From: a virus
Lineage: Duplodnaviria > Caudoviricetes
Strand: one strand, 5' to 3'
IMG/VR virus record: IMGVR_UViG_3300028139_000001
Coordinates: 19,516-83,515 of that record
DNA: 64,000 nucleotides
In this document: positions 1,097-43,200 of the stretch, in pieces
How the letters are laid out: every line of letters begins with the position of its first letter
How positions within the stretch are numbered: position 1 is the stretch's first letter
Translations under genes and position numbers: made by a program
The notes under the pieces: model-generated
Databases searched by the model: none
The model's input: the letters and a program-made list of their open reading frames with translations, nothing else
Told to the model about the DNA's origin: nothing

Positions 1097-27006
<25,910 letters not shown>

Positions 27007-27165
27007 AGTCCTTGTCCTACTAGTCGTCGTTGTTTTTTACTTAGTTGTAGTGAGCATTGTACGAACTTAGTTAATTTTATTGTTAACAATAAAATTATTC
27101 GTTCTAGTATATTAGTGCTTTTTGTAGTTGGAGTATTTTTACTATTTACACCTGGAGTTAGTTGT
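27007..27165 (+). other. In-frame 53-codon linker joining Cox1 to Cox2
   Basis: ...LPLQS-SPCPTSRRCFLLSCSEHC...[26 protein letters not shown]; no stop codon and no ATG. Confidence 0.9.
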
Positions 27166-30100: not shown

Positions 30101-33100
30101 AAATCTAAAACTAAAATAGGACATACTGTATGATTAAAATTTACAATAGCTCAACATGTTAGAGATGTTAAGTTACTTAATAGTTTAATTGACTATTTAG
30201 GGTGTGGATCTATAAACAAAGCAAACAACTGTATTGAGTTTGTTGTGACAGGTTTTACCGATATTCGTTTTAAAATTATACCTCAGCGCAGCAGCCTCAG
30301 TCTTCGAGACGTTGTCTCGAAGACGCAGACGCCGAGGTTTTTTGAAAAATACCCTTTTCATAGTGCAAAGAGTTATGATTTTCAGGATTTTTGTATAGCA
30401 GCTAAATTAATAGAGGAAAAAGCTCATTTAACTCAACAAGGTTTTGAAAAATTATTAGCTTTAAAACAAGGTATGAACAGAGGTAGAGAGGAGTAAAATA
30501 TGTTAACGGAGATATAATCAATTACATTACACCTTTATCGTTAGCTATCTGAATTTCAGATAACGGAGGTTGAGCTAAACCTGGTGTAAGAATAGCTACA
30601 AATAATTTTAAATTACATGAAGTAGAATTTCTAGTTAAACTTATCCAAAGTAAATTTCTTTTAGAATGTATTATTCAAACAGATGGGTCAAAATCTTAGA
30701 ATAACAAAACTATTTATATTAATGCTAGTTCAGTTTCCAGATTGAGGGAGCTAGTCTTGCCTTATTTACATACTTCTATGCGTTATAAGCTAGGTCTATA
30801 AAAATAAACTTATTTTTTTTTTATAAAGCTCTTCTAATATATAGGTATACGATAGTCGAGAGGTAAAACATGGTTTTACTTCTAAGTTTCCGACAGGATT
30901 CTTAGAAAAAAGGTTAGTCTTTTTGTTAGTGTATTATTTTATTAAAATTTTATTTCTAATAAGTTAAAAGATTAGTTTTTTTTCTGGCAACACAAGTGTA
31001 AACAGTTAAATATTATTATTTTCAATATCACACCTTAGAGGATATCCTAGGTGGCAGATGATAATACAAGACTGTCTGAGATAATTATTATTATTTTGGC
31101 AACAGACTGGGTCACTTGTGGGTGTCATTATATTGTCACTTGTAAGTGTAAATATATCTGATGCTTATTGTACAGTCGATAGTTCACTATAAAATGCTTT
31201 ATTTAATATTTCTATTTTAGTTATTTGAAATACACTTTGTAGAGAATAAAATAGCCATTAAGATAGCTGAAACCATTTGATAAATAGGATCCTAATAAAC
31301 ACCTTTTTCATATGGTTAGAAGCAGTAAATTTAGCGTTTAATTTAAAGTAGGTTAGTTTTGCACCAATGATATTGAAATTACGAATACCCAGATTTCTTA
31401 AACAATGATGGAGATTTCGTTGAGTTTGATTCTTACTCGGTAGAATTGGATTCGATTCAACTTAAATCTACTTTACCGTCATTTAATCAATTAAATGCGT
31501 CATTAGATTTACCTAGCCCTCCTACCAGAAATATAACGTATTATCCGGACAACGATCTTTTTGAAAGGCTTGAAAAACAAAAGAATCATAATTTATATAA
31601 GCCATTTAATTATGATAGTCCTCGTTGAGATAGTGATAGAATACTAGATCAAACTCTTAAAGATAGAGCTGTGTGTCTTGCAGAAAAATCTGGAAATTTG
31701 GGTAAAGATGGTTACTACATAAAGGAATATACTACTGGTTCAAAAAAAGGTCAGAGGGTCGTTTGTTTGAACAATAATAGTATCATTGCGGCACGTTTGT
31801 TGGAAATAATAAAAAAATAAAATATATAAGCTGTAGGTTAGTTTTGCACCAATGATATTGAAGTTACGAATACCCAGATTTCTTAAACAGTGATGGTGAT
31901 TTCATTGAGTTTGATTCATACTTAGTTCCTGAATCTGATTTAGAAGATGGAGCGTTAAGAATGTTAGAAGTAGATAACCGTGTTATCCTTCCTGAAATTA
32001 CACACACTAGATTTATTCTTACTGCTGCAGATGAACTGAGTACCTTTAGCAAGTAACTCTTAACGTCTATACATTATCAAATTCCGGGGACACCCTAAAG
32101 ACCTTTTAACTAAACGTTTATCTCAAAAGGTTAAACGTGGCTATGTTAATGACCATAGGTATAGTAATATAAAAAGGTATATACGAAAGTTAAATGGGTT
32201 ATCGTGGATCTAAATCACCTAGTTACCTTATTTGGTAACCCTACAATCTTGTAATTCACGCTACAGCTGCAAAGAAAGATTGCTAGGCTACATCATTATA
32301 GTGCAGTAGGTTGTAAAAGAGCAACGAGTAGACGGTAGTGGTCTATAATAGTAAAAAAGGGTTACACTCAACTATTATAGATTAAGGTATACTCTAGTCG
32401 ACCTGATAATAGGTCGTTGGGTTTATAGCTATACCTAAAATCTAAATATTCTAATTATTAATTAATTAACGCAATGGAGTAATGATTATGTTATTTGGCG
32501 GTGGTACATATGGGCAGAGATTTTTAAATAAAATGAAACCAGATTATTAGATCATGGTAAAGTAAGCTCTCGGTTAAGTGTTCTTTTACTTTACTAGTGG
32601 TAAATAAATATTCTGGATACCCTGGACCACGTAATCTAGTTTCTGTGCTTAAATACAGTATTCTTTTTAGAAGAACAAGAACTCTACCCAGTATCTATGG
32701 TTGTAGGTTTTATTCGGAAAATAACCACAATCGTATCACAAGTGAAGTGATTAATAAAGTACTATCTAATCAAGGTGTTTCTATTACACAAAAGGAACTG
32801 AATGTTTTGTTAACTATTAAGGGTGTAACTTTTGACTTACCCTTCAATAGTCAAACATTACCAGCTTTATTTGGTTTGGTAGGTAAACCTAAAAGCAGAA
32901 GACCTAAATCCGGTATATATATTTTTACACACTTAGCTACAGGTAGAAAATATGTGGGGTCAAGTAATAGTATTTCAAGAAGATTAGAACAATATTTTAA
33001 CCCTAATCCTTTATTTTATAAGGAATATGGTTTATTACTTCCTTTGATTAAAAAAGAAGGGGTAAGTAACTGCTTTTAATCTGGAAATATATGTTATGCC

Positions 33101-36100
33101 GGAGGAATTAAGCTCAGATTATAACTTTTTGTTTTTGGAGCAATATCACTTATTAGATAGTAATTTTAACTTAAATACTCAAAGAGTTGTTAATTTTAGA
33201 GTTAATCAAGGAAATACTGTTTATCTATATGATTTTGAGGGTAAGATTTCATATTACACTGCAACTTCTTTAAATGGATTGAAAGCTCATTTAGGTATTC
33301 ATCATTCTACTGTTACAAAATGTATAAAAACCGGATTACTTTATCTAGATTATTTCATAATTACAGATCAACTAAAATCAGATGCAAAAAAAGCTGGTTT
33401 ATCTTTAGAAGAGTTATCTAATTTTATTTCGGACAAAAGATCTTTATTTCGGCTTCGCTTAAAAAAAAAAGAAATGTGCAACAGTTCTTTTTTTTTTTTT
33501 ACCCAGTCTTCGTTTTGAAAGAACGACGACGCCGGGGCTAAAAAAATATTTTTCTTTGAAAAACAGTAAATCAATCTATATTAAACAAGATGTTACAGGA
33601 GTAACACACAATTTTCCTAGCATAACATCATTAGTTAAATACTTTGATAGAATAGATATTAAGGCTAACCGTAATAAGATAGCTAGTTGTTTAAATACCA
33701 ACGAATCTTATTTAGGTTACACTTACTATACTGATACAACCTAAATATTACCAAACTATAAACATTTGGTGATTACTAGCCTATAAATAATAGAGTTCGA
33801 GTTCCAACAAAGTGTTATAATAATAAAATATTTAGATCATGGAAAAGTAAACTATCGGTTATCCATTCATTTGCGATTCCAGCATTAGGAGTAAAGTGTG
33901 ATGCATACCCGGGTAGATTAAACCAATTCTCTGTTCTTATTAACAGATTAGGAACATTTTATGGTCTTATGGCCTAAACTTTAGTGAACCTTGAGTTCTA
34001 AACTATCAAATTGTCGGGAACGCCCTAAAGCTTTCATAACCAAGTAAGAGTAGTAATACATTTTATGGCGCAGGTAATGACTCGCGGTATGGTGAAATCA
34101 TGAGAGATAATTTAATGGGTAATCCGCAGCCAAGTACCTAGTATTTTTTTATTTTTTTTTTTTATTAGGTATGCAGTTCATAGACTAGACGGTAGTTGGT
34201 ATTATTACCATTATAATGCTTAAGATATAGTCAAACCCCTCCTGAAAAGGTGCAGGAAAGTATAATTATTATATTTTTTGTTAATTAAACATACATATTT
34301 GTTAGTTTGTTTAGGGATAAATTTTTACGATCGTTTGCTAAATTTTCATTTTAATGTGTATAATTTTTAAGTTATTATAATTAATTGTATTTTATATTTT
34401 TATTATAACATTTTCAATCTTAAAGTTGTTTATTATAGTATTATAATGCATAAGTTAATTAATAATTATCTTTTATTAGATTCAAGTATAAGTATATTAA
34501 TTTTTAAAAGAACTTATAATACTACTGCTACTAAACAATCTGAAGAATTTAATCCAGAATTCTTAGCGTTAGAACATATTAATAGTGGGAATCCTACAAC
34601 TGCTTCAGTAATTAATAATATATTGTTAAATCAAGCTATCGCTGTTACTGATTCTAAATTAAAAGATTTATTAAAAGTTGAAGGTGTAGGATTTAACTTA
34701 TATTTATCTAGTTCCCCTGTAGCAAAAGAAGATTATAAACTTTTTTCAAAGTTAACAGGTAATTCTAGCTATAAAGGACATTCGGGTGTGTATATGTTTA
34801 TCCACAAGACAACAGGTCAAAAATATGTTGGTTCTTCTAATTTGTTAAGACGTAGAATGGATTATTACTTTAAGGGAGATTTTTTTTCTTTAACGGGTAA
34901 ATTCTTACCATTGCTAACTCAAAAAGGATTAGGTGCTTTTAAATTAATTATCTTTAAGTTAGATAATAATAAATTTAATGTTAAAAATGCGTTAATTTTA
35001 GAACAATATCATTTATTAAGTAAAGAATTTGATCTAAATACTTTAAGAGTAATTAATGCAGGGTCTTCAAAAGGTGAAAGTGTTTATGTTTATGATTTAA
35101 CTTGTAGTACTCTTTATTATCATGCTTGCTCAAGAATTGAGTTAAAAAGAAGATTAAAAGTTCACCCAGAAACATGTAAAAAATTTTTAGATTCAAATCT
35201 TCCTTATCTTAATAGATTTTTATTATTAAGTGGTTTAATATCTACTGCGGTTAAAAGTAATATGTCTGTTCTAGAATTACTTGAAATAATGCAAAAAGAA
35301 AGACAAATTACGTATACATGAGGTACACGAAGAAATATTTCCGTTATCTTAGAAATTAAAGATGGGAATAAATTTGTAGATACTTGAGGCCAAACTCTTA
35401 AATTTGAGTCTATAACTACATGTATTAACTACTTAAGAGATCTAAGGTTAATTATAAAAAGAGAAACTCTTTCTAAATATATAAAAATTGAAAAAGAGTT
35501 CCACCATTTTTTATGTAAATATTCTGATAGTACTAAACCTGATAATTTTGAAGAAGTAGGATTAATTATAGATGAATACAAAAAATTATGAAAACAAGAA
35601 TTAGTTGATATTCCTGGTTAATAAAAAAAAAATAGACCTGTATTAGTAAAAGGTCCTTATTTTGAAAAAGAGTTTGAAACTATTACAGATACAATTAAAT
35701 ATTTTGAGTCTATTGGTATTAAATTAGATAGGAAGTATTTAACTATTAAATTAAAAAATGGTGAACCCTATAAAGGATATTATTTTAAGTAAAAAAATTT
35801 AACATTAAAAATCATAAAAAAAATTTGCAATGTTTAATTTTAAATGTTAAATAAAAACCCCCAAAGAGAAGGTTCTCCGTTTTCTTATAGAGGTTATTGT
35901 CATAATAGAAGCTATAGTACTAATGATTATATAAATAAACTTAGTGAAAAAGTAAAAACGGAGTATGACAATTTACCAGATTACTCTGTAATTAAACGCC
36001 CAGAATCTTTGGTTTATTCTAGAATGGTTTTGTCTTATTCAGATGTAATTGTAACTTTATATGGTTTAGTTCCTAATAAAGAAATGAAAGATTATTTTCA

Positions 36101-37247
36101 TATTCCGGAAAATTGTAATTTACCCGGTATATACTGTTTTATAAGTAAAGATGGTTTATCTTATTATATAGGGTCGTCTTTGAATATGCGAACTAGATAT
36201 AATCGTCATTTGTTTAATTTAAAACAGAATTCGGATTCTAATTAAAGATATTCTGAAGCTAACCCTAAATTTTATAATTATATGAATAAATATGGCTTAG
36301 ATAGTTTATCTTTTTGCTGTTTATTAGTAATAAAAACTATCTTGGCATGTTTACCGGATTTAACCTTTCTGAAGAAGAAAAGGGGGTTTTAACTGCACTA
36401 ATGCAATTAGATCTCTTAATTACTGAACAATTTTTTTTTAGATACTTTCGGTTTTTCATTAAATGTTGCTCCAAAAGCAGGTACGAGAGAAAATAGTATA
36501 TTGTCTGATGAAACCAGAAAAAAAAATGAGTGATGCTCATCTAAACTTAGATATTACGCTTTCGGAAGACCAATGAAAAGCAATTAGAGCTAAAGCTGCT
36601 GAAGCTTGAGCGAAGGAAATACCAGAAAGCGAAAGAAGAATAGCTATAAATTAATTTAACGGTAGAGCTGTAATTGTAAAAGACTCTAATCAAAAAGTAA
36701 TTGGAGAATTTAATTCTATAGTAAAAGTAGTGGAATATTTACATGTTAATCGTAATAAAAATAAGTCTTTATCTAAAGTCAGGGGATTTATTGGAGAGTA
36801 GAATAGGACCTGTACTATTGATAGAAAAAGAGGGCTCAGTTAGTGAGCGTTTCTATAAAATCCAAGTTTTGGATATAAATAGAAATCTATTGGATACCTA
36901 CAGTAGCTTAAGGGCTGCAGCTAAAAGTTTGGGTATTTCCCCTTCTTCCTTTAGTACAACCCACTCCGGTAGGAGTAGGTTATGTAAAGGTAAATACTAC
37001 TTTATAAAATGTGTATAATCTTCTTTATATTCTATTTATATACAAATGTCTTTTCACCCAGAATATTAATTAAAGTGCTTATCTGTCTAATTCATAATTA
37101 TTAATAAATAAAATTGATTAATTACATTAAAATATCGTAAAAATCTTGCAATGTAGCGAAATTTGTGGAATTTTGCACAGTTCTATGCCCATTGTTGTAG
37201 AATCTGTATCTATTGAGAAATTCCTTTTGTGATTACAGGAGCAATAA
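27166..37247 (+). CDS. cox2: Cytochrome c oxidase subunit 2 (mature part); exons 27166-27489, 31847-32032, 33858-33965, 37149-37247
   Basis: [14 protein letters not shown]...EG|HQWYWSYEY...AAD|VIHSFA...YG|[13 protein letters not shown]...WLQEQ*; CuA ligands present. Confidence 0.95.
27490..29646 (+). CDS. In-frame fusion of nested LAGLIDADG endonucleases (~718 aa)
   Basis: RIGPHD...GSLLG stub, [20 protein letters not shown], second RIGPHN...GSLLG domain, then start of a third gene; open to TAA 29644-29646. Confidence 0.82.
28534..28581 (+). mobile_element. GC-rich hairpin element, family D (48 nt, in frame)
   Basis: CAGCGCAGCAGACTCA-GTCTTCGAGAC-GTT-GTCTCGAAGAC-GCCGAGG inserted after IIP. 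Confidence 0.9.
29520..30496 (+). pseudogene. LAGLIDADG endonuclease with frameshifts
   Basis: [11 protein letters not shown] and [12 protein letters not shown]. Confidence 0.8.
30284..30337 (+). mobile_element. GC-rich hairpin element, family D (54 nt, in frame)
   Basis: Near-identical to 28534-28581; inserted at IIP|FF. Confidence 0.9.
30500..30801 (+). pseudogene. Displaced C-terminus of the original cox2 intron 1 LAGLIDADG
   Basis: [16 protein letters not shown]...SMRYKLGL*. Confidence 0.75.
31362..31820 (+). CDS. Duplicate of cox2 exon 2 start (26 codons) fused to an unknown ~126-aa domain
   Basis: GTAGGTTAGTTTTG|CACCAATGATATTGA occurs at 31348 and again at 31833; frame open to TAA 31818-31820. 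Confidence 0.8.
32573..33744 (+). pseudogene. GIY-YIG endonuclease, frameshifted and hit by hairpin elements
   Basis: [20 protein letters not shown]; break near 33070; insert at 33450-33550. Confidence 0.8.
33450..33540 (+). repeat. Composite hairpin element (AT hairpin family I plus family D 3' end)
   Basis: CGGCTTCGCTT-A(n)-GAAATGTGCAACAGTTC-T(n)-ACCCAGTC...GCCGGGGCT; related copies at ~5020-5080 and 59997-60038 (reverse strand). Confidence 0.8.
34446..35621 (+). CDS. GIY-YIG endonuclease (tail frameshifted to ~35790)
   Basis: [19 protein letters not shown]; open to TAA 35619-35621. Confidence 0.85.
35828..37018 (+). pseudogene. Decayed GIY-YIG endonuclease
   Basis: [19 protein letters not shown]; multiple stops and frameshifts. 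Confidence 0.75.
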
Positions 37248-38182
37248 TGGTGTATATATTTAATATAGTTAAAAGGGTAAATAACTCTTGTGTCATATCA
37301 CAATCTAAATGCCATTATTTATCTAAACCTCACGTTTTTTCTTCTATGCCATTGCAAAGTGGTATATTTACTATTAATAGAAAATTTATTATTGGTTTAG
37401 TTAGTAGTATTATTACTGCTGCCATGGGCTACGGAATAAGACTGATTCTCTTGCATTATTTAGAACATGACGTTTTTACTGATTTAGATAACTGAATAGC
37501 TAGCTTGAGTTATTTTTGCTCTTTAGGTGCTATTCGCTTTGTAATTAATGAATGTCTTAAAGAAAATACTTTCCTAATGTCTTATTGTGGTGGTCCTATG
37601 GGAGTTTCTAACAATACAGCTGGAAGTGGTTCTTTACCTGTTGGTAGTAATGCAGCTGGGTATAATAGTTCTATGCAAGCTCCTAATTCTTCAGATATTG
37701 GTAATTATAGTGCCGGTTCTAGTTCTATTCCCGGTACTGCAGTACCGGGTAGTACTGCAGATCACAGTACTACTGGTTTAGGTAGTTCTAGTGGAGGTGA
37801 TGCTTCAATTACAAATGACCGTTCAAAATTAGAGCATAGAATTAGTAAAGTACAAGATAAAGTACAATACTTTGGGGAACAACTTGAAGGAGCTAAACAG
37901 GACTATAATGAAGTTATATCTAAACAATCTGAGTATGTAACCCACGGTAAAGCAGAGGAATGACAGAGGGAATATATTGAAGCTGTGTCTGCAGTAAAGG
38001 ATTCTGAAACCAATTTATCTAGTGAAATTAGAATGCACAATGTATTACAAAAAAAACTAGTAAACGGTGATTATTCTATGTCTGGTACATCTACTACTAC
38101 TAAACGTAGACTTAGTGATTGTTCTATGGCTAATTATGGTTCTAGTACACCCACTAATACTAAACGTACATCTGATGGTTAA
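37247..38182 (+). CDS. Hypothetical 311-aa membrane/coiled-coil protein carrying a Cox1-tail copy; ATG overlaps the cox2 TAA
   Basis: Track ORFs 37229, 37505 and 37985 are one frame; KPHVFSSMPLQS at 37325-37360. Confidence 0.85.
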
Positions 38183-38245
38183 TAACTACATTTGTGTAGT
38201 TAAAAAGCTTACTGATATTATTTTTTATAATATCAGTTAACGATG

Positions 38246-38323
38246 ATCTTACACAGTTTTATGCCCATTATTGTAGAATCTGTATCTATCGAGAAATTCC
38301 TTTCTTGGTTACGAGAACAATAG
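38246..38323 (+). pseudogene. Second (displaced) copy of the cox2 3' end
   Basis: [25 protein letters not shown] versus used [25 protein letters not shown]. Confidence 0.92.
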
Positions 38324-38387
38324 TAAGATAAAACTTATCTAAGAACTCAACTCTGGATAAATTTTTATAAAACAATTATTATTTTAC

Positions 38388-38550
38388 AATTAACTTGTTA
38401 TGAAAGGTAATGCCATTACCAAATAGTATAGACAAATCCCAGTCTATAGATCTTTTAAGTTTAAGCTGGAAAATTGCAATTACTTTTTTTTTTGTAAAAA
38501 GCAATTATGGAGAAGAGTAAACGTAAGTTAACTAAAGCCATATAAAAACA
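38388..38550 (+). ncRNA. Candidate structured RNA motif, copy 1
   Basis: Colinear conserved blocks and compensatory stems shared with 63024-63187. Confidence 0.5.
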
Positions 38551-39790
38551 GAAAACAAAAAACAAAAAATATATTACCTTCATTGGGATAGCATCTGGTT
38601 TAGAGGCTATTGGTTAAGTGTTTGAATCATTTCTTTTTTTTACTACCTTTAACAAGTATAATTATTCTTATTTGTTTACATAGATTACTGAGGATCATCC
38701 CGGTAAACGGTTATATCTTTGTTGTTCCACCTAGTCCTTTGATGCATAGCTCCGCTATGTTTTGTTTTTTTTTCCTGTGAATTACATATGATTCCCCAGA
38801 CTACTCACACGGCTGCTTTTTCATTTCGAGAAGCATAACATCGAGACCCGAGACCCTTCGTCCGTCATGTAACAAACTGAATTGGTGGTTCTCAACAGCA
38901 GTTGACCAGAAATGTAGAAAGGAAGAACAAAACACTTTTAATTTATCCTCCTACTTTTTCTGGGAATAGATTATATGAGTCAATAAGATCCACCCGACGC
39001 AGGTTATGCCATACAAGTCCCACAGTATAGAACTCGGAAGACCAAAAGTGCATTATACAAAAAAAAAGACAGCAGCTACAATAAGAATAGTGCCTATATT
39101 ATAAAATAGTAAGGTATTTTCACCCTACTAATATAGCATAACTGCACTTTGCTAGTTGCTCCTTTTGATCTTATCTAATATTCTTAAATATACCCGGGTT
39201 CTTACCCGTGGTTACCTTAAGTCCTACGAAAACACCCTAGACTTAGAATTAAATGGGCTTTACTCAAAAACTACTCTTCGTAAATCTAATTGGATACTAC
39301 AATAGTAAAAAATGTAAGTCTAGTTCAGCCAGTTTAATATGAAATGCAACCGTACTGCGTATATTATACGGCATGTGTATTAATAAGTTAGCCGGAACGT
39401 GAAAGAAAGGTGATAAAGATAACATACCGTGGTAGTAACTAAGTTTCTAATTTGACAGAGCGAGTGGAAGTCTCAGAGCTAAGTAACCAAGCAGGTAATA
39501 TAGACCGGATTAAAAGCAGTCTATGTTAAAAAAAGTAAGCCGGCATTAAAAGGCATAGAAGATTACGTGGAGTAGATTAGCAGGGTACAGCTGCGATTTA
39601 TCCATATAGGTACTTTATAGCTAAACACTTATTTAGCACTAGAGTCTAGACCTTTGTAGGGACTATTATAAATGAATTATACCGAATTATATCATCAACT
39701 ATTGTGTTTTTGGAAATATCCAATGTTGGTAGAAGAAGAATCTTAATAGACTTCATATATCATTTGTATCACCTCTCGATCTTGGTGTGA

Positions 39791-39843
39791 TTAGAAAAAA
39801 AAAAAGTAAAAAAAAATTCTATTTTTTTATTTTTTTTTTCTTA
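39791..39843 (-). mobile_element. AT-rich hairpin element, family H
   Basis: Reverse complement of 55053-55102. Confidence 0.8.
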
Positions 39844-40226
39844 CTGCTATCTTTAAAGAGCTATCAGATGTGATAACCTAAGCATATTGAGACGGTAAGG
39901 AAGCCTACTAGAAAATAGTATTCGGATCTACCCAACATCCGATGGGGAAAGGGCCCCAATAAAAACCCCAGAGGAAGATTCTGAACCGCAGAGGCTGGAG
40001 GTGCGATCCGTGGTATAAGGGGGGTGAAGTTATATAAACCTCCAAATCTAAAGTGTGGGTACACGTGTATGTGGGCTTACACATTACATTCATTAAAATA
40101 AAAACAAGATATTTATAAAAAAATTTTTTACGCTTTACAATGGATAAGTAAAATCTTACTAAAAGTAGTTTTACTGTTAACATATTATATTAAATTAAAA
40201 AATAATTAAAACAACTATACAAATAA

Positions 40227-43200
40227 ATGAGATTTTTAAAAAGTCATCCGATTTTTAGATTAGGGAACGATTTCTTAGTGGATTCACCGCAACCTATTAA
40301 CTTAAGTTACATGTGAAATTTTGGTTCTTTGTTAGCTTTTTCTTTAATTATCCAGATACTGACTGGAGTAACCTTAGCGATTAATGGGTTGCTATAAAAT
40401 CTTACTGTATGCTGGAACACCCTGAATATTAAACTTAGGGCAATCAGCAGGAAACTTGTAGATCTTTTAACATTAACAAGATCCTCAGAGACTATGCGTA
40501 AGACAAATATTATATAAATAATATGTGAAGATATAGTCCGTCCTTTTTTATTGAAAAATAAAAGGTATGTTATTTATTTATTATTTTTATTGCTATGATG
40601 TTAACTTTTTTATTTATATCTGGTAATTATAACTCTAAGTTATCAAACTATCGTTCTAGAAACCGCTCGTTTATTAAAAAGGTAAATAGAGAAAAACAAA
40701 TTAGATTTTATAGTACTAAAAATAAAGATATGTGTAATTACTTAAATCCCTGATGAGTCACTGGTTTTGTATTATTTTTTTTTTCTTTTGCTTAAATTAA
40801 CCATTAAACACTGCAAAAGAAAAAAAAAATCAGCAGAAGGTTCATTTGCAATGTCTATATTTAAATCAAAAACTGCTGCTATAGGTTGGACTGTAGAACC
40901 TTGTTTTATTATTACTTTACACGTGAGAGATTTAGAATTATTAAACTCAATTAGAGGTTTTTTTTCTGTAGGTTCAGTTTTAATAGTGGGGAATGATGCA
41001 CGATTTAGAGTCAGATCTAGATCAGAGCTTAATGTTATTATTGCTCACTTTAATAATTACCCTTTACAGACAACTAAAGCCCTAAATTTTACATATTTCT
41101 GTGAAATACTTAATTTTATTAATAACAGAGTTCATACTAACATTCCTGGATTTTTAAAATTATGTTCTTTAATCAATAAATTGAACAAACCCCTGTCTCA
41201 ACCACTTTTAGATAAATTAGCAGAAATAGGTCCTTTACCTAGTGTAGAGTTTGAAACTTCTCTTAACTTAAGTGCCTCAAACATAGAACAAGTCTTAAAT
41301 CCTTACTGAATCTCTGGGTTTGCATTGTTTTTTTTGACGTTATTTCTTTCAGAAATTACTAAAAAAAAACTAGGTGAAGGTTGTTTTACATATTTTACAA
41401 AAACTCGTGTAAATTCTGCAGGTAAAACAGTTAAGGATTATTCTCTTGTGTTTGAAATAAGTCAGAGAACACAAGATTTACACATATTAAATTTAATAGC
41501 TTCTTATTTTAAAACAGGTAAGGTTTATACTGACACTAGTCGTATAAGCAGATACAGATTACGTACTAAAGATCCAATCAGTAATACATTAATTCCTCAC
41601 TTTAAGAATTATCCTTTAGCCGGTCATAAAGCTTTACAGTGTTCACTTTGATTTAAAATAGTTTGTCTTTTAAACGATCAGGTAAGAACAGAGCAAAGAG
41701 ACATAGAGTTAGAAAAATTAATAAAAGAGTTATCTGATTTAAAATAGAAACAATAGATAAATATACTTTATTATACTAGATAATGGCATTACAATCCTAG
41801 TGTATTAGAAGCATTTAACAGTGTAGAGCATAGCGTAATGTGCTCTTTAAATCAACCTATATGCTGGAAGTTCCTAAAGCTTAAAAGATTAAACTTCGCT
41901 TACGAAGTTAATTAAAATCTTTAAGATGTATATGGATAATCAGCAGGAAACCAAAGTAATTCAATTACGAGTAAAATCCTCAGAGGCTATACGGTTGACA
42001 TATTTATTATATGGTGATATAGCCCTATATTGGTTGAAAGATCAATAGTTAAAGATTAATCCATTATACATATTTAATGGTATAATATTATTGCCTAGTT
42101 ACGTATCGGGTCATAAAAATAAAATGGGATTTTGTCACTTATCTACTAACTGTAATAAAAATTCTAATGTACGTACTGAAGACAACTTTTTGAAAAATGT
42201 TTCCAGCGAGTTCTTATATTGATTTTCAGGATTCACGGATGCAACTAGCCGAAGAAGATATAGCACTAATATATCAAGTACTAACAACGAATTAAGTTTA
42301 GTAGTTTGAGGTACAAATTTAAGGTCTCAAGTAGGTACTGGTAAATATACAAAGTTAGTTAGTTCTATTATAAAATTACCGAATTATAATAAGAGTATTG
42401 TAATAGGATTATTATTATCAGATGGTTGGTTAACCTTTGCGAGTAAAACACATAAAAATGCACGATTAGGGTTTAAACAAACTATAAATAATGCATCTTA
42501 TGTATGATATGTTTTTAATGAATTATCTCATTATTGTAGTAGTTACCCTTATTACGCAGAAAGTAAAAGATCAGGAAAAGTATCTTATAATTTAGGATTT
42601 TTTACTCGAGGTTTGCCATGTTTCACTGAATTATACCCATTATTCTATATAAATAACATTAAAATAGTACCAGAAGATATCTATAATATTTTAACTCCAG
42701 TTGCTCTAGCTCATCTTATCATGGGAGATGGTGGATTTAAAAGTAAAGGTATTTATATTTGTACTGACTCTTATACTATTCAAGATACAGTACGATTAAT
42801 GAATGTATTAATCATACGTTATGATTTTAAATGTACTCTTCATAAAGCTAGTAATAAACATGGATATAGAATATATATATCTCGAAATTCATTATATAAA
42901 GTAGAAAAGTTAGTTAAACCCTATTTTATACCCAGCATGTATTACAAACTAGGAGGATAGTCCCATCTTAACTCCTTTGTTTCATTTAGTTATAAATAAT
43001 CCTACTTTTTAATATCGATAGATCGTCAGTATGTAAGATTTAGATTTAAAATATCTTTGCACATGGATGATGTAGAAGTTCTTAATACAATAAAATCTAA
43101 TTTAAATGTAGGTACTGTTACAGTAGAATGTAGTAGAAACAGTTGTTCTTATGTTATACAAAATAAGGAAGAAATTAAAAATGTCATATGCCCTATCTTT

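Follow-up and report, generated by a model that had tools for sequence, protein, structure and literature searches.

How does a gene that encodes no nuclease come to lie in the 3' end of cox2, held between two copies of the cox2 terminus? We addressed this question in a window of 64 kb (the whole stretch analysed, 64,000 nucleotides of IMG/VR record IMGVR_UViG_3300028139_000001), which is a portion of an intron-rich fungal mitochondrial genome of the order Pleosporales, uses genetic code 4, and was recovered from phyllosphere metagenomes. In this genome the last exon of cox1 continues in frame into cox2, forming a fused cox1/2 gene of a kind already known in the Pleosporales (PMC5626475, PMC6221350, PMC8956966). 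Directly behind the fused gene starts an open reading frame (ORF) of 311 amino acids (aa). We consider it probable, at roughly 60%, that this ORF is the cargo of a nuclease-free cassette of the mobile-ORF or gene-hybrid type, lodged in the 3' end of cox1/2. In order, the cassette runs from a replacement cox2 terminus through the ORF and a short conserved spacer to another cox2 terminus, to which the native 3' untranslated region (UTR) is joined.

The cox2 terminus on both sides of the ORF

The final 77 nucleotides (nt) of cox2 are present twice, at 37170-37246 and 38246-38322, with 66 of the 77 positions identical (86%; blastn inside the window, E 8.6e-20), which confirms an earlier note on this DNA that described the cox2 end as occurring twice in diverged form. 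The upstream copy (A) finishes cox2 in frame and is an in-phase replacement terminus, and the reading frame of the downstream copy (B) still encodes the 25-residue Cox2 terminus. The start codon of the ORF (37247-37249) shares one base with the cox2 stop, giving TAATG at 37245-37249; this overlap had also been described, and it holds with the start of the last exon confirmed by an RNA splice joint. The same one-base overlap is reported between nad4L and nad5 in these fungi (PMC6221350). The elements of the locus are the following.

37170..37246, plus strand: terminus copy A, the functional cox2 end, of A type and ending CAGGAGCAATAATGG (sequence comparison)
37247..38182, plus strand: the 311-aa ORF (P0001), whose ATG overlaps the cox2 stop
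38183..38245, plus strand: spacer conserved in the family (..GTAGTTAAAAAGCTTAC..TTAACGA..; locus alignment)
38246..38323, plus strand: terminus copy B, of B type, with TGG for Trp and a pseudo-stop TAG at 38321-38323 (sequence comparison)
38324..38350, plus strand: cox2-type 3' UTR, TAAGATAAAACTTATCTAAGAACTC, the same sequence as behind genuine B-type cox2 ends in other genomes

A protein search placed the ORF product on 40 contigs, the longest of 206 kb, and nearly all of the 42 metagenome loci that reach far enough show the same order of cox2 end, ORF, conserved spacer of ~55 nt, and second terminus, the displaced downstream terminus being present in ~30 loci. The repeat starts identically at all loci, with GG before the boundary and ATYTTACAC after it, 21 nt downstream of a group I intron site that is occupied in some loci and empty in others. 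Shared synonymous states distinguish two types of terminus. The A-type termini, which are functional and adjacent to the ORF, finish ...TTGGAAAAG...CAGGAGCAATAATGG, and the B-type termini, which are the downstream copies, finish ...TTAGAGAAA...CAAGAACAATAG, followed by TAGGATAAAACCTATCTAAGAACTC. The genuine cox2 ends of five loci (L009, L015, L017, L022, and L028) are of B type and carry the same 3' UTR, with an ORF lying 0.4-1 kb beyond. Because these genuine ends, to which no ORF is directly attached, are of B type with that UTR, we regard the B type as the native terminus. Copies A and B of the window share derived states (an Ile codon, CCC, and TTCCTTT).

The divergence of the ORF and of its host gene was measured as the fraction of same-amino-acid codons that differ in sequence, with Fisher's test, using ~300 host codons from the metagenome contigs. 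Three comparisons illustrate the result.

L004 versus L010: cox2 60/192, ORF 8/184, p 2e-12
Window versus L013: host 79/259, ORF 15/175, p 3e-8
L013 versus L038: host 32/284, ORF 42/79, p 4e-14

The discordance between ORF and host runs in both directions, supporting the earlier suggestion that a passenger other than a homing endonuclease gene is mobile here. Four-fold sites agree with the codon-based values, the host values are consistent over the cox1 tail and both halves of cox2, and the host clade of L013, L035, and L038 has 97/97 support. On these sequence comparisons, the cassette appears to have been exchanged recently among Pleosporales mitochondria, and its cargo appears to be mobile.

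The limits of the exchanged segment differ between close and distant hosts. In L013 and L038, 12/23 of the last 25 cox2 codons differ, against 32/284 in the host as a whole (p 7e-6); since these codons diverge like the ORF and unlike the remaining cox2, the functional terminus appears to have been exchanged together with the ORF. In close hosts, the mismatch density climbs gradually from ~-100 nt to the terminus. In distant hosts, the membrane module, linker, and tail of the ORF, the spacer, and copy B are 93-100% identical, the first ~20 ORF codons are hypervariable, and similarity collapses directly after copy B. Copy B shows the same low divergence as the ORF and goes with it to sites other than cox2, and it therefore behaves as part of the moving unit and not solely as the old end of the recipient. 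The proposal that the insertion brought a replacement terminus and displaced the old one, along the route known from homing endonuclease genes that invade gene ends, thus stands in part: the geometry, the two terminus types, and the terminus specificity agree with it, but the downstream copy is young and moves with the ORF, and TAATG is not universal.

The cox2-end site is used repeatedly. Locus L017 (2329-5597) carries two paralogous ORFs in tandem behind cox2, each followed by its own terminus copy, the second headed by the 5' end of cox1. In L019 (10939-15205), an unrelated 476-aa ORF (12112-13542) has the second copy of the cox2 terminus before it and the third, with the same boundary, behind it. 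Family members detached from cox2 bear other heads, namely 65 cob codons, the cox1 start, or pieces of nad1, and the family ORF also occurs in frame, with no intervening stop, behind complete nad3 (L025:1786-2982) and behind rps3 (L029:197-2341). Given these relatives, chimerism by recombination is general in the family. Most of the detached ORFs retain a downstream copy of the cox2 terminus. In Coniothyrium glycines no ORF lies behind cox2, and the family member orf284 is located beside trnF and nad4L (PMC6221350).

Several further features of these junctions were observed. The 476-aa ORF of L019 has a hydrophobic N-terminus, a Lys/Glu-rich C-terminus, and no Pfam match, and it is followed by a 224-aa ORF of similar build (14531-15205). 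In L037 (269-560) and L038 (2081-2290), where cox2 meets a divergent ORF lineage, several tandem copies of its last ~30 nt are present, visible as IRKMLIMISRTIV repeats in the ORF frame. The spacer of the window (38183-38237) is predicted to form two hairpins (-17.7 kcal/mol, z -4.8), the longer of which arises from an AT-rich insertion missing from most other loci. We rejected conserved spacer hairpins, which occur only in the window lineage and L002, the spacer being shorter at other loci. We also rejected the ORF as a frameshifted extension of Cox2. That idea came from the lack of stops in its frame across the entire last exon, but genuine B-type ends without an attached ORF likewise have no stops in this frame in the locus alignment, and the openness is hence a property of the cox2 sequence.

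Reading frame, transcript, and predicted protein

Aligned at the nucleotide level, 21 copies of the ORF differ by 28 distinct indels, each with a length divisible by three; 20 of the copies are free of stops, and the other two frames contain 13-44 stops. The remaining copy (L012, 325-1161) has a single in-frame stop (...APNN*GIGSS...) in an otherwise intact frame and is possibly a recent pseudogene or a sequencing error. Selection was measured by region with a maximum-likelihood codon model, which replaced a whole-ORF NG86 estimate of omega ~1. Omega is 0.26 in the membrane module (twice the log-likelihood difference, 2dlnL, is 32 against omega = 1), 0.32 in the C-terminal tail (2dlnL 17.6), 0.59 in the linker, and 1.01 in the coiled coil, with a control value of 0.07 for the neighbouring cox sequence. 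Between L004 and L010, the ratio of nonsynonymous to synonymous differences (pN/pS) in the coiled coil reaches 3.15 (p 0.0013), and the nonsynonymous rate exceeds the synonymous rate (dN>dS) in some lineages. The alignments show a reading frame under selection, which is purifying in the membrane module and tail, with the coiled coil evolving at or above the neutral rate.

The ORF is also transcribed. Assembled contigs from four metatranscriptomes contain, at high depth, the splice joints 32032>33858 and 33965>37149, the latter of which removes the last intron of cox2. This intron contains two GIY-YIG genes in series, with Pfam matches to GIY-YIG and NUMOD1, and it terminates 21 nt short of the repeat boundary.

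33966..37148, plus strand: last cox2 intron, group I (Rfam group I core 33966-34254; RNA joint 33965>37149 in four runs)
34446-35621: intact GIY-YIG endonuclease gene, 391 aa (Pfam)
35844-37018: broken second GIY-YIG gene, split into GIY-YIG and NUMOD1 pieces (Pfam)
37149..37247, plus strand: last cox2 exon, QCSEICG...LQEQ, with its stop TAA at 37245-37247 and its start fixed by the RNA splice joint

An RNA contig begins at the acceptor 37149 and spans the ORF, the spacer, and copy B. Across the four runs, the depth of the ORF region is 5-9x that of the intron and 0.6-1x that of the exons (X16: intron 26, ORF region 129, exon contigs 184-237; X19: intron 23, ORF region 134; X20: intron 102, ORF region 652; X18: intron 321, ORF region 2335-2885). 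These data show that the ORF remains on the spliced cox1/2 RNA, as anticipated when co-transcription with cox2 was put forward as a check. In X18 the depth drops about three-fold near 38382-38411, which hints, but weakly, at termination of the RNA downstream of copy B; in the other three runs a single contig extends across this position. A minor joint, 31871>37149, seen in one run at depth 33, connects the area of a duplicated exon-2 start to the last exon and may be an alternative or aberrant splice. The RNA joints included none expected of an ORF-less A/B recombinant or of a circle, a result that is uninformative about such forms. Downstream, the segment 38400-40335 has exon-like RNA depth, without a long ORF or an Rfam match, the sole Rfam match in 38150-40900 being a group I intron at 40336 (40336-40563). 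Because the transcribed stretch ends at this intron, the segment is probably an exon of an unrecognised RNA gene.

The protein is divided into the following parts.

37313..37366, plus strand: Cox1-tail tag, residues 23-40, HYLSKPHVFSSMPLQSGI (BLASTP, profile-profile comparison)
37382..37558, plus strand: two-helix membrane module, with transmembrane helix 1 at ~46-70, an acidic loop at 71-83, and transmembrane helix 2 at ~84-104 (omega 0.26)
37571..37801, plus strand: disordered Ser/Gly/Asn-rich linker, residues 109-185, whose length varies by in-frame indels
37802..38065, plus strand: antiparallel helical hairpin (coiled coil), residues 186-273 (confidence score pLDDT >90, omega ~1)
38066..38179, plus strand: conserved basic C-terminal tail with two (T/N)TKR motifs (omega 0.32)

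The sequence and an AlphaFold model built with a 22-sequence alignment bear out the two hydrophobic segments, the Gly/Ser linker, and the coiled-coil-like region that had been read from the letters. The model has helices at 45-71 and 83-107 with modest to low confidence (pLDDT 50-67), disorder at 107-186 and in the C-terminal tail, and a helical hairpin at 186-273 with pLDDT >90. The N-terminal 45 residues have a net charge of +5 and the loop between the helices has -4. By the positive-inside rule, this distribution suggests a hairpin in the inner membrane with both ends inside, so that the matrix is the predicted location of the coiled coil at the C-terminus and of the N-terminus with its copy of the Cox1 tail, and the loop would face the intermembrane space.

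We found 49 homologues, of which the named ones (Ascochyta lentis, Exserohilum rostratum, and C. glycines) are all Pleosporales and span three families of Pleosporineae; a profile of the membrane module retrieves 51 clusters among 1.84 billion representatives. The ORF has full-length similarity to this family, including the module ..FTINRxFIIGLVSSIITAA.GYGIRLILLNYLEYDVFTNLDNW..SLSYFCSLGGIRFVINE, with the invariant residues R65, D75, R97, and E102. This two-helix module stays constant across the family; the linker ranges from a few residues to ~300, and at least four unrelated C-terminal domains follow the same membrane anchor.

The match to the Cox1 tail within the ORF, already noticed in the first inspection of the locus, is confirmed at residues 23-40: it aligns with the tail of the genome's own Cox1 over 16-21 residues (BLASTP E 2e-5, profile-profile E 5.6e-6). 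In relatives, the Cox1 tail and the family tag contain an identical run of 18 nt, CCTAAACCTCACGCATTT, from which the tag of the window differs by two bases, with GTT in place of the relatives' GCA. This identity shows at the sequence level that a portion of the ORF derives from the 3' end of cox1. A former location of the ORF behind cox1 is plausible; acquisition of the tag by recombination, as relatives acquired pieces of cob, cox1, nad1, nad3, and rps3, would be another way to obtain it. The N-terminal module as a diverged duplicate of Cox1 tail, linker, and first transmembrane helix of Cox2 was not supported, hhalign aligning only the 16-residue tag. We also rejected ATP synthase subunit 8, a protein of ~50 aa with an MPQL motif and a single helix, against 311 aa and two helices here; the 'MPLQS' of the ORF belongs to the Cox1-tail copy and is missing from subfamily 2. 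The gene for this subunit is not in the mitochondrial DNA of Pleosporales, and in S. lycopersici atp8 is reported to be nuclear (PMC5626475).

The junction between Cox1 and Cox2, directly after the Cox1 tail PLQS, also receives in-frame inserts. A Cys-rich insert of ~110 aa is present there in L004 (139-480), L019 (3213-3560), and L022 (~1130-1640), with weak matches to IBR and B-box domains (E 0.004-0.007); in L019 it is bracketed by a duplicated cox1 tail. The Cox1-Cox2 linker of the window (27007-27100) exceeds the minimal linker by ~30 aa.

Proposed mechanism and rival explanations

Under the cassette reading, translation of the ORF would occur by termination and reinitiation at TAATG, or at an adjacent in-frame ATA. 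Once hyphae have fused, ordinary homologous recombination would carry the cassette from one mitochondrial genome to another, the left homology arm being the body of cox2 and the right one terminus copy B; gene conversion or the integration of a looped-out circle are possible routes. If copy B acts as the right arm, its young age, its travel with the ORF, and the stop of similarity behind it would be accounted for. Breaks made by the GIY-YIG endonuclease of the adjacent intron may assist the spread; because most carriers are without the intron, this nuclease would be at most an occasional helper. As to function, we would guess at a matrix protein, anchored in the membrane, whose benefit goes to the element and not to respiration. 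The Cox1 C-terminal tail of yeast binds the translational activator Mss51 (PMC5683760). A much more specific and unlikely version of the cassette reading is that of a selfish element without its own nuclease, in which the copies of the host-gene end serve as homology arms, a mimic of the Cox1 tail is carried on an inner-membrane anchor together with interchangeable, positively selected matrix domains, and the protein interferes with the feedback of cytochrome oxidase assembly or with mitochondrial inheritance.

Several points weigh against the cassette as we read it. Its horizontal spread is deduced from rate discordance on host segments of ~300 codons, and its presence/absence polymorphism from B-type junctions together with the published coordinates of C. 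glycines. The ORF tree is star-like and unresolved and cannot name donors. The intron is missing from many ORF-bearing loci, so help from its nuclease is not general. The youth of copy B and of the spacer, which equals that of the ORF, and their presence with it at sites other than cox2 are a misfit with a simple picture in which each recipient has its old terminus displaced. Four lineages do not have the ATG of TAATG, with ACT, ACC, or GTG instead; the in-frame ATA directly before this position is retained in those ATG-less lineages whose junction was read. Finally, the RNA evidence consists of assembled contigs and not of reads, and does not show strand or transcript ends.

These points have to be set beside other explanations of the locus. 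The ORF could be an old resident gene, inserted once in an ancestor of the Pleosporales and inherited vertically since, that encodes a host inner-membrane protein such as an accessory factor for the fused Cox1/2; the terminus duplicate would then be a fossil kept similar by intragenomic gene conversion, and the discordance would come from paralogue sorting and uneven rates. An architecture common to three Pleosporales families, purifying selection on the membrane module and tail, and co-transcription with cox1/2 agree with such a history, as does the unresolved ORF tree; the derived states common to copies A and B suggest local conversion, and the tandem paralogues of L017 make differential loss possible. 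The synonymous divergence of the ORF is nevertheless 3-7x below that of the neighbouring cox2 in many pairs, with a ratio >1 in other pairs, and vertical descent, orthologous or paralogous, could give the lower values only with a reduced mutation rate in the ORF. The youth of the ORF is shared by the non-coding spacer and copy B, and omega of ~1 or more over a third of the protein, with interchangeable C-terminal domains, would be unusual for a respiratory accessory subunit. We therefore consider the resident gene unlikely, and find still less probable that the cassette hitch-hikes on the intron, with the GIY-YIG endonuclease cutting intron-less cox2 in trans and long co-conversion tracts carrying the cassette along. 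The intact 391-aa gene in an intron that ends 21 nt before the repeat boundary, the polymorphism of the intron at exactly that site, and the gradual rise of mismatches from ~-100 nt in close hosts, which fits variable conversion tracts, speak for this explanation, but the intron is missing at most loci where the cassette sits on cox2 (L002, L004-L006, L010, L012, L013, and L035), and the cassette is also found at sites other than cox2.

A decayed homing endonuclease gene, with nuclease motifs that are no longer recognisable, is very improbable. Such genes do decay, and the position and flanks of the ORF are those of known endonuclease mobile ORFs (PMC3630166; 10.1101/028324), but the frame is held intact by selection and the searches for a nuclease were negative. 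With Pfam, this ORF had no match even at a threshold of E 10, and neither the 22 relatives nor the 10 distant members hit a nuclease family at E up to 0.01, with LAGLIDADG, GIY-YIG, HNH, and NUMOD absent at these thresholds from the ORF and from the members tested; a sequence profile search of PDB had a best E of 0.4, ESM Atlas gave no usable match, and Foldseek against PDB returned generic helical hairpins only (E >0.07), the model consisting of two membrane helices, disorder, and a helical hairpin. Since none of these searches gave a nuclease, we conclude that the protein is no recognisable endonuclease, decayed or otherwise, which agrees with the original description of a cargo without a nuclease motif and contradicts the degenerate endonuclease that had been considered as its counter-case. 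The other counter-case, a local tandem duplication of the cox2 end around a meaningless chance ORF, is hardly credible. These mitogenomes are rich in short duplications (for example at 31348/31833 elsewhere in the window and in the cox2-end repeats of L037 and L038), but here the repeat copies stand on either side of the ORF in every case, with an unchanged boundary, and the ORF is conserved in dozens of contigs, with in-frame indels and omega well below 1 in two domains.

Significance and comparison with known systems

A 3'-end insertion with a replacement terminus is the accepted signature of homing endonucleases, and at this locus it surrounds a transcribed gene for a membrane protein, whose frame selection maintains, with positive selection in parts, and which seems to pass from species to species. 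If the cassette reading is true, homologous recombination alone, or the nuclease of a neighbour, can mobilise cargo genes in fungal mitochondria, and new mitochondrial genes, as well as chimeric ORFs akin to those of plants, could arise in this way. A family listed only as hypothetical proteins in Pleosporales mitogenomes now has a name and a testable context, and several fungi of the carrier order are crop pathogens. The locus is also a warning against the cox2 3' end as a marker for phylogenies of the Pleosporales, for which it is unreliable.

The closest systems are the gene hybrids formed by mobile ORFs (mORFs), in which endonuclease ORFs occupy genes, cox2 included, of Glomus, Allomyces, Rhizopus, and Mortierella (PMC3630166). 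As in the Glomus hybrids, a conserved mitochondrial gene has received the ORF in its 3' part, the inserted C-terminus is in phase and the native one is displaced downstream, the ORF and inserted terminus are on the mRNA of the host gene, and there are hints of a horizontal origin. Unlike them, the window ORF has no nuclease domain or fold, whereas theirs are LAGLIDADG or GIY-YIG ORFs that drive mobility in Allomyces; here the downstream copy travels with the ORF, and the cassette is order-wide, in contrast to their recent, strain-specific insertions. Because an mORF hybrid is defined by an endonuclease ORF, we describe the cassette as a variant and not as a member of this class. The COX2-ORF1 of Saccharomyces (F-SceIII; 10.1101/028324) is likewise a free-standing ORF that overlaps the 3' end of COX2, by 19 nt there and 1 nt here, and in those yeasts recombination and introgression carry the COX2 3' region and the ORF across species borders, with phylogenetic incongruence limited to that region. 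It differs in being a LAGLIDADG/NUMOD endonuclease with no second COX2 end, the ORF described here being a membrane protein between duplicated termini.

To the same family as the window ORF belong orf284 of C. glycines and hypothetical proteins of Ascochyta lentis, Exserohilum rostratum, and Bipolaris (PMC6221350), with matches such as P0035 (E 5.7e-62) and P0008 (66% identity). The authors who described orf284 likewise found no conserved motif, and, unlike the window ORF, it stands beside trnF and nad4L and not behind cox2 (PMC6221350). In the publications consulted, we found no description of the terminus duplication, the Cox1-tail tag, or selection on the family or its mobility. The ORFs of plant cytoplasmic male sterility are chimeras of pieces of conserved mitochondrial genes, co-transcribed with an essential gene, and have a hydrophobic N-terminal part. 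The Cox1-tail tag, the cob, cox1, and nad1 pieces, the nad3 and rps3 fusions, and the co-transcription described here resemble them. The plant chimeras, however, are young and species-specific and have no flanking host-gene termini, while the fungal ORFs form an order-wide family with a conserved module.

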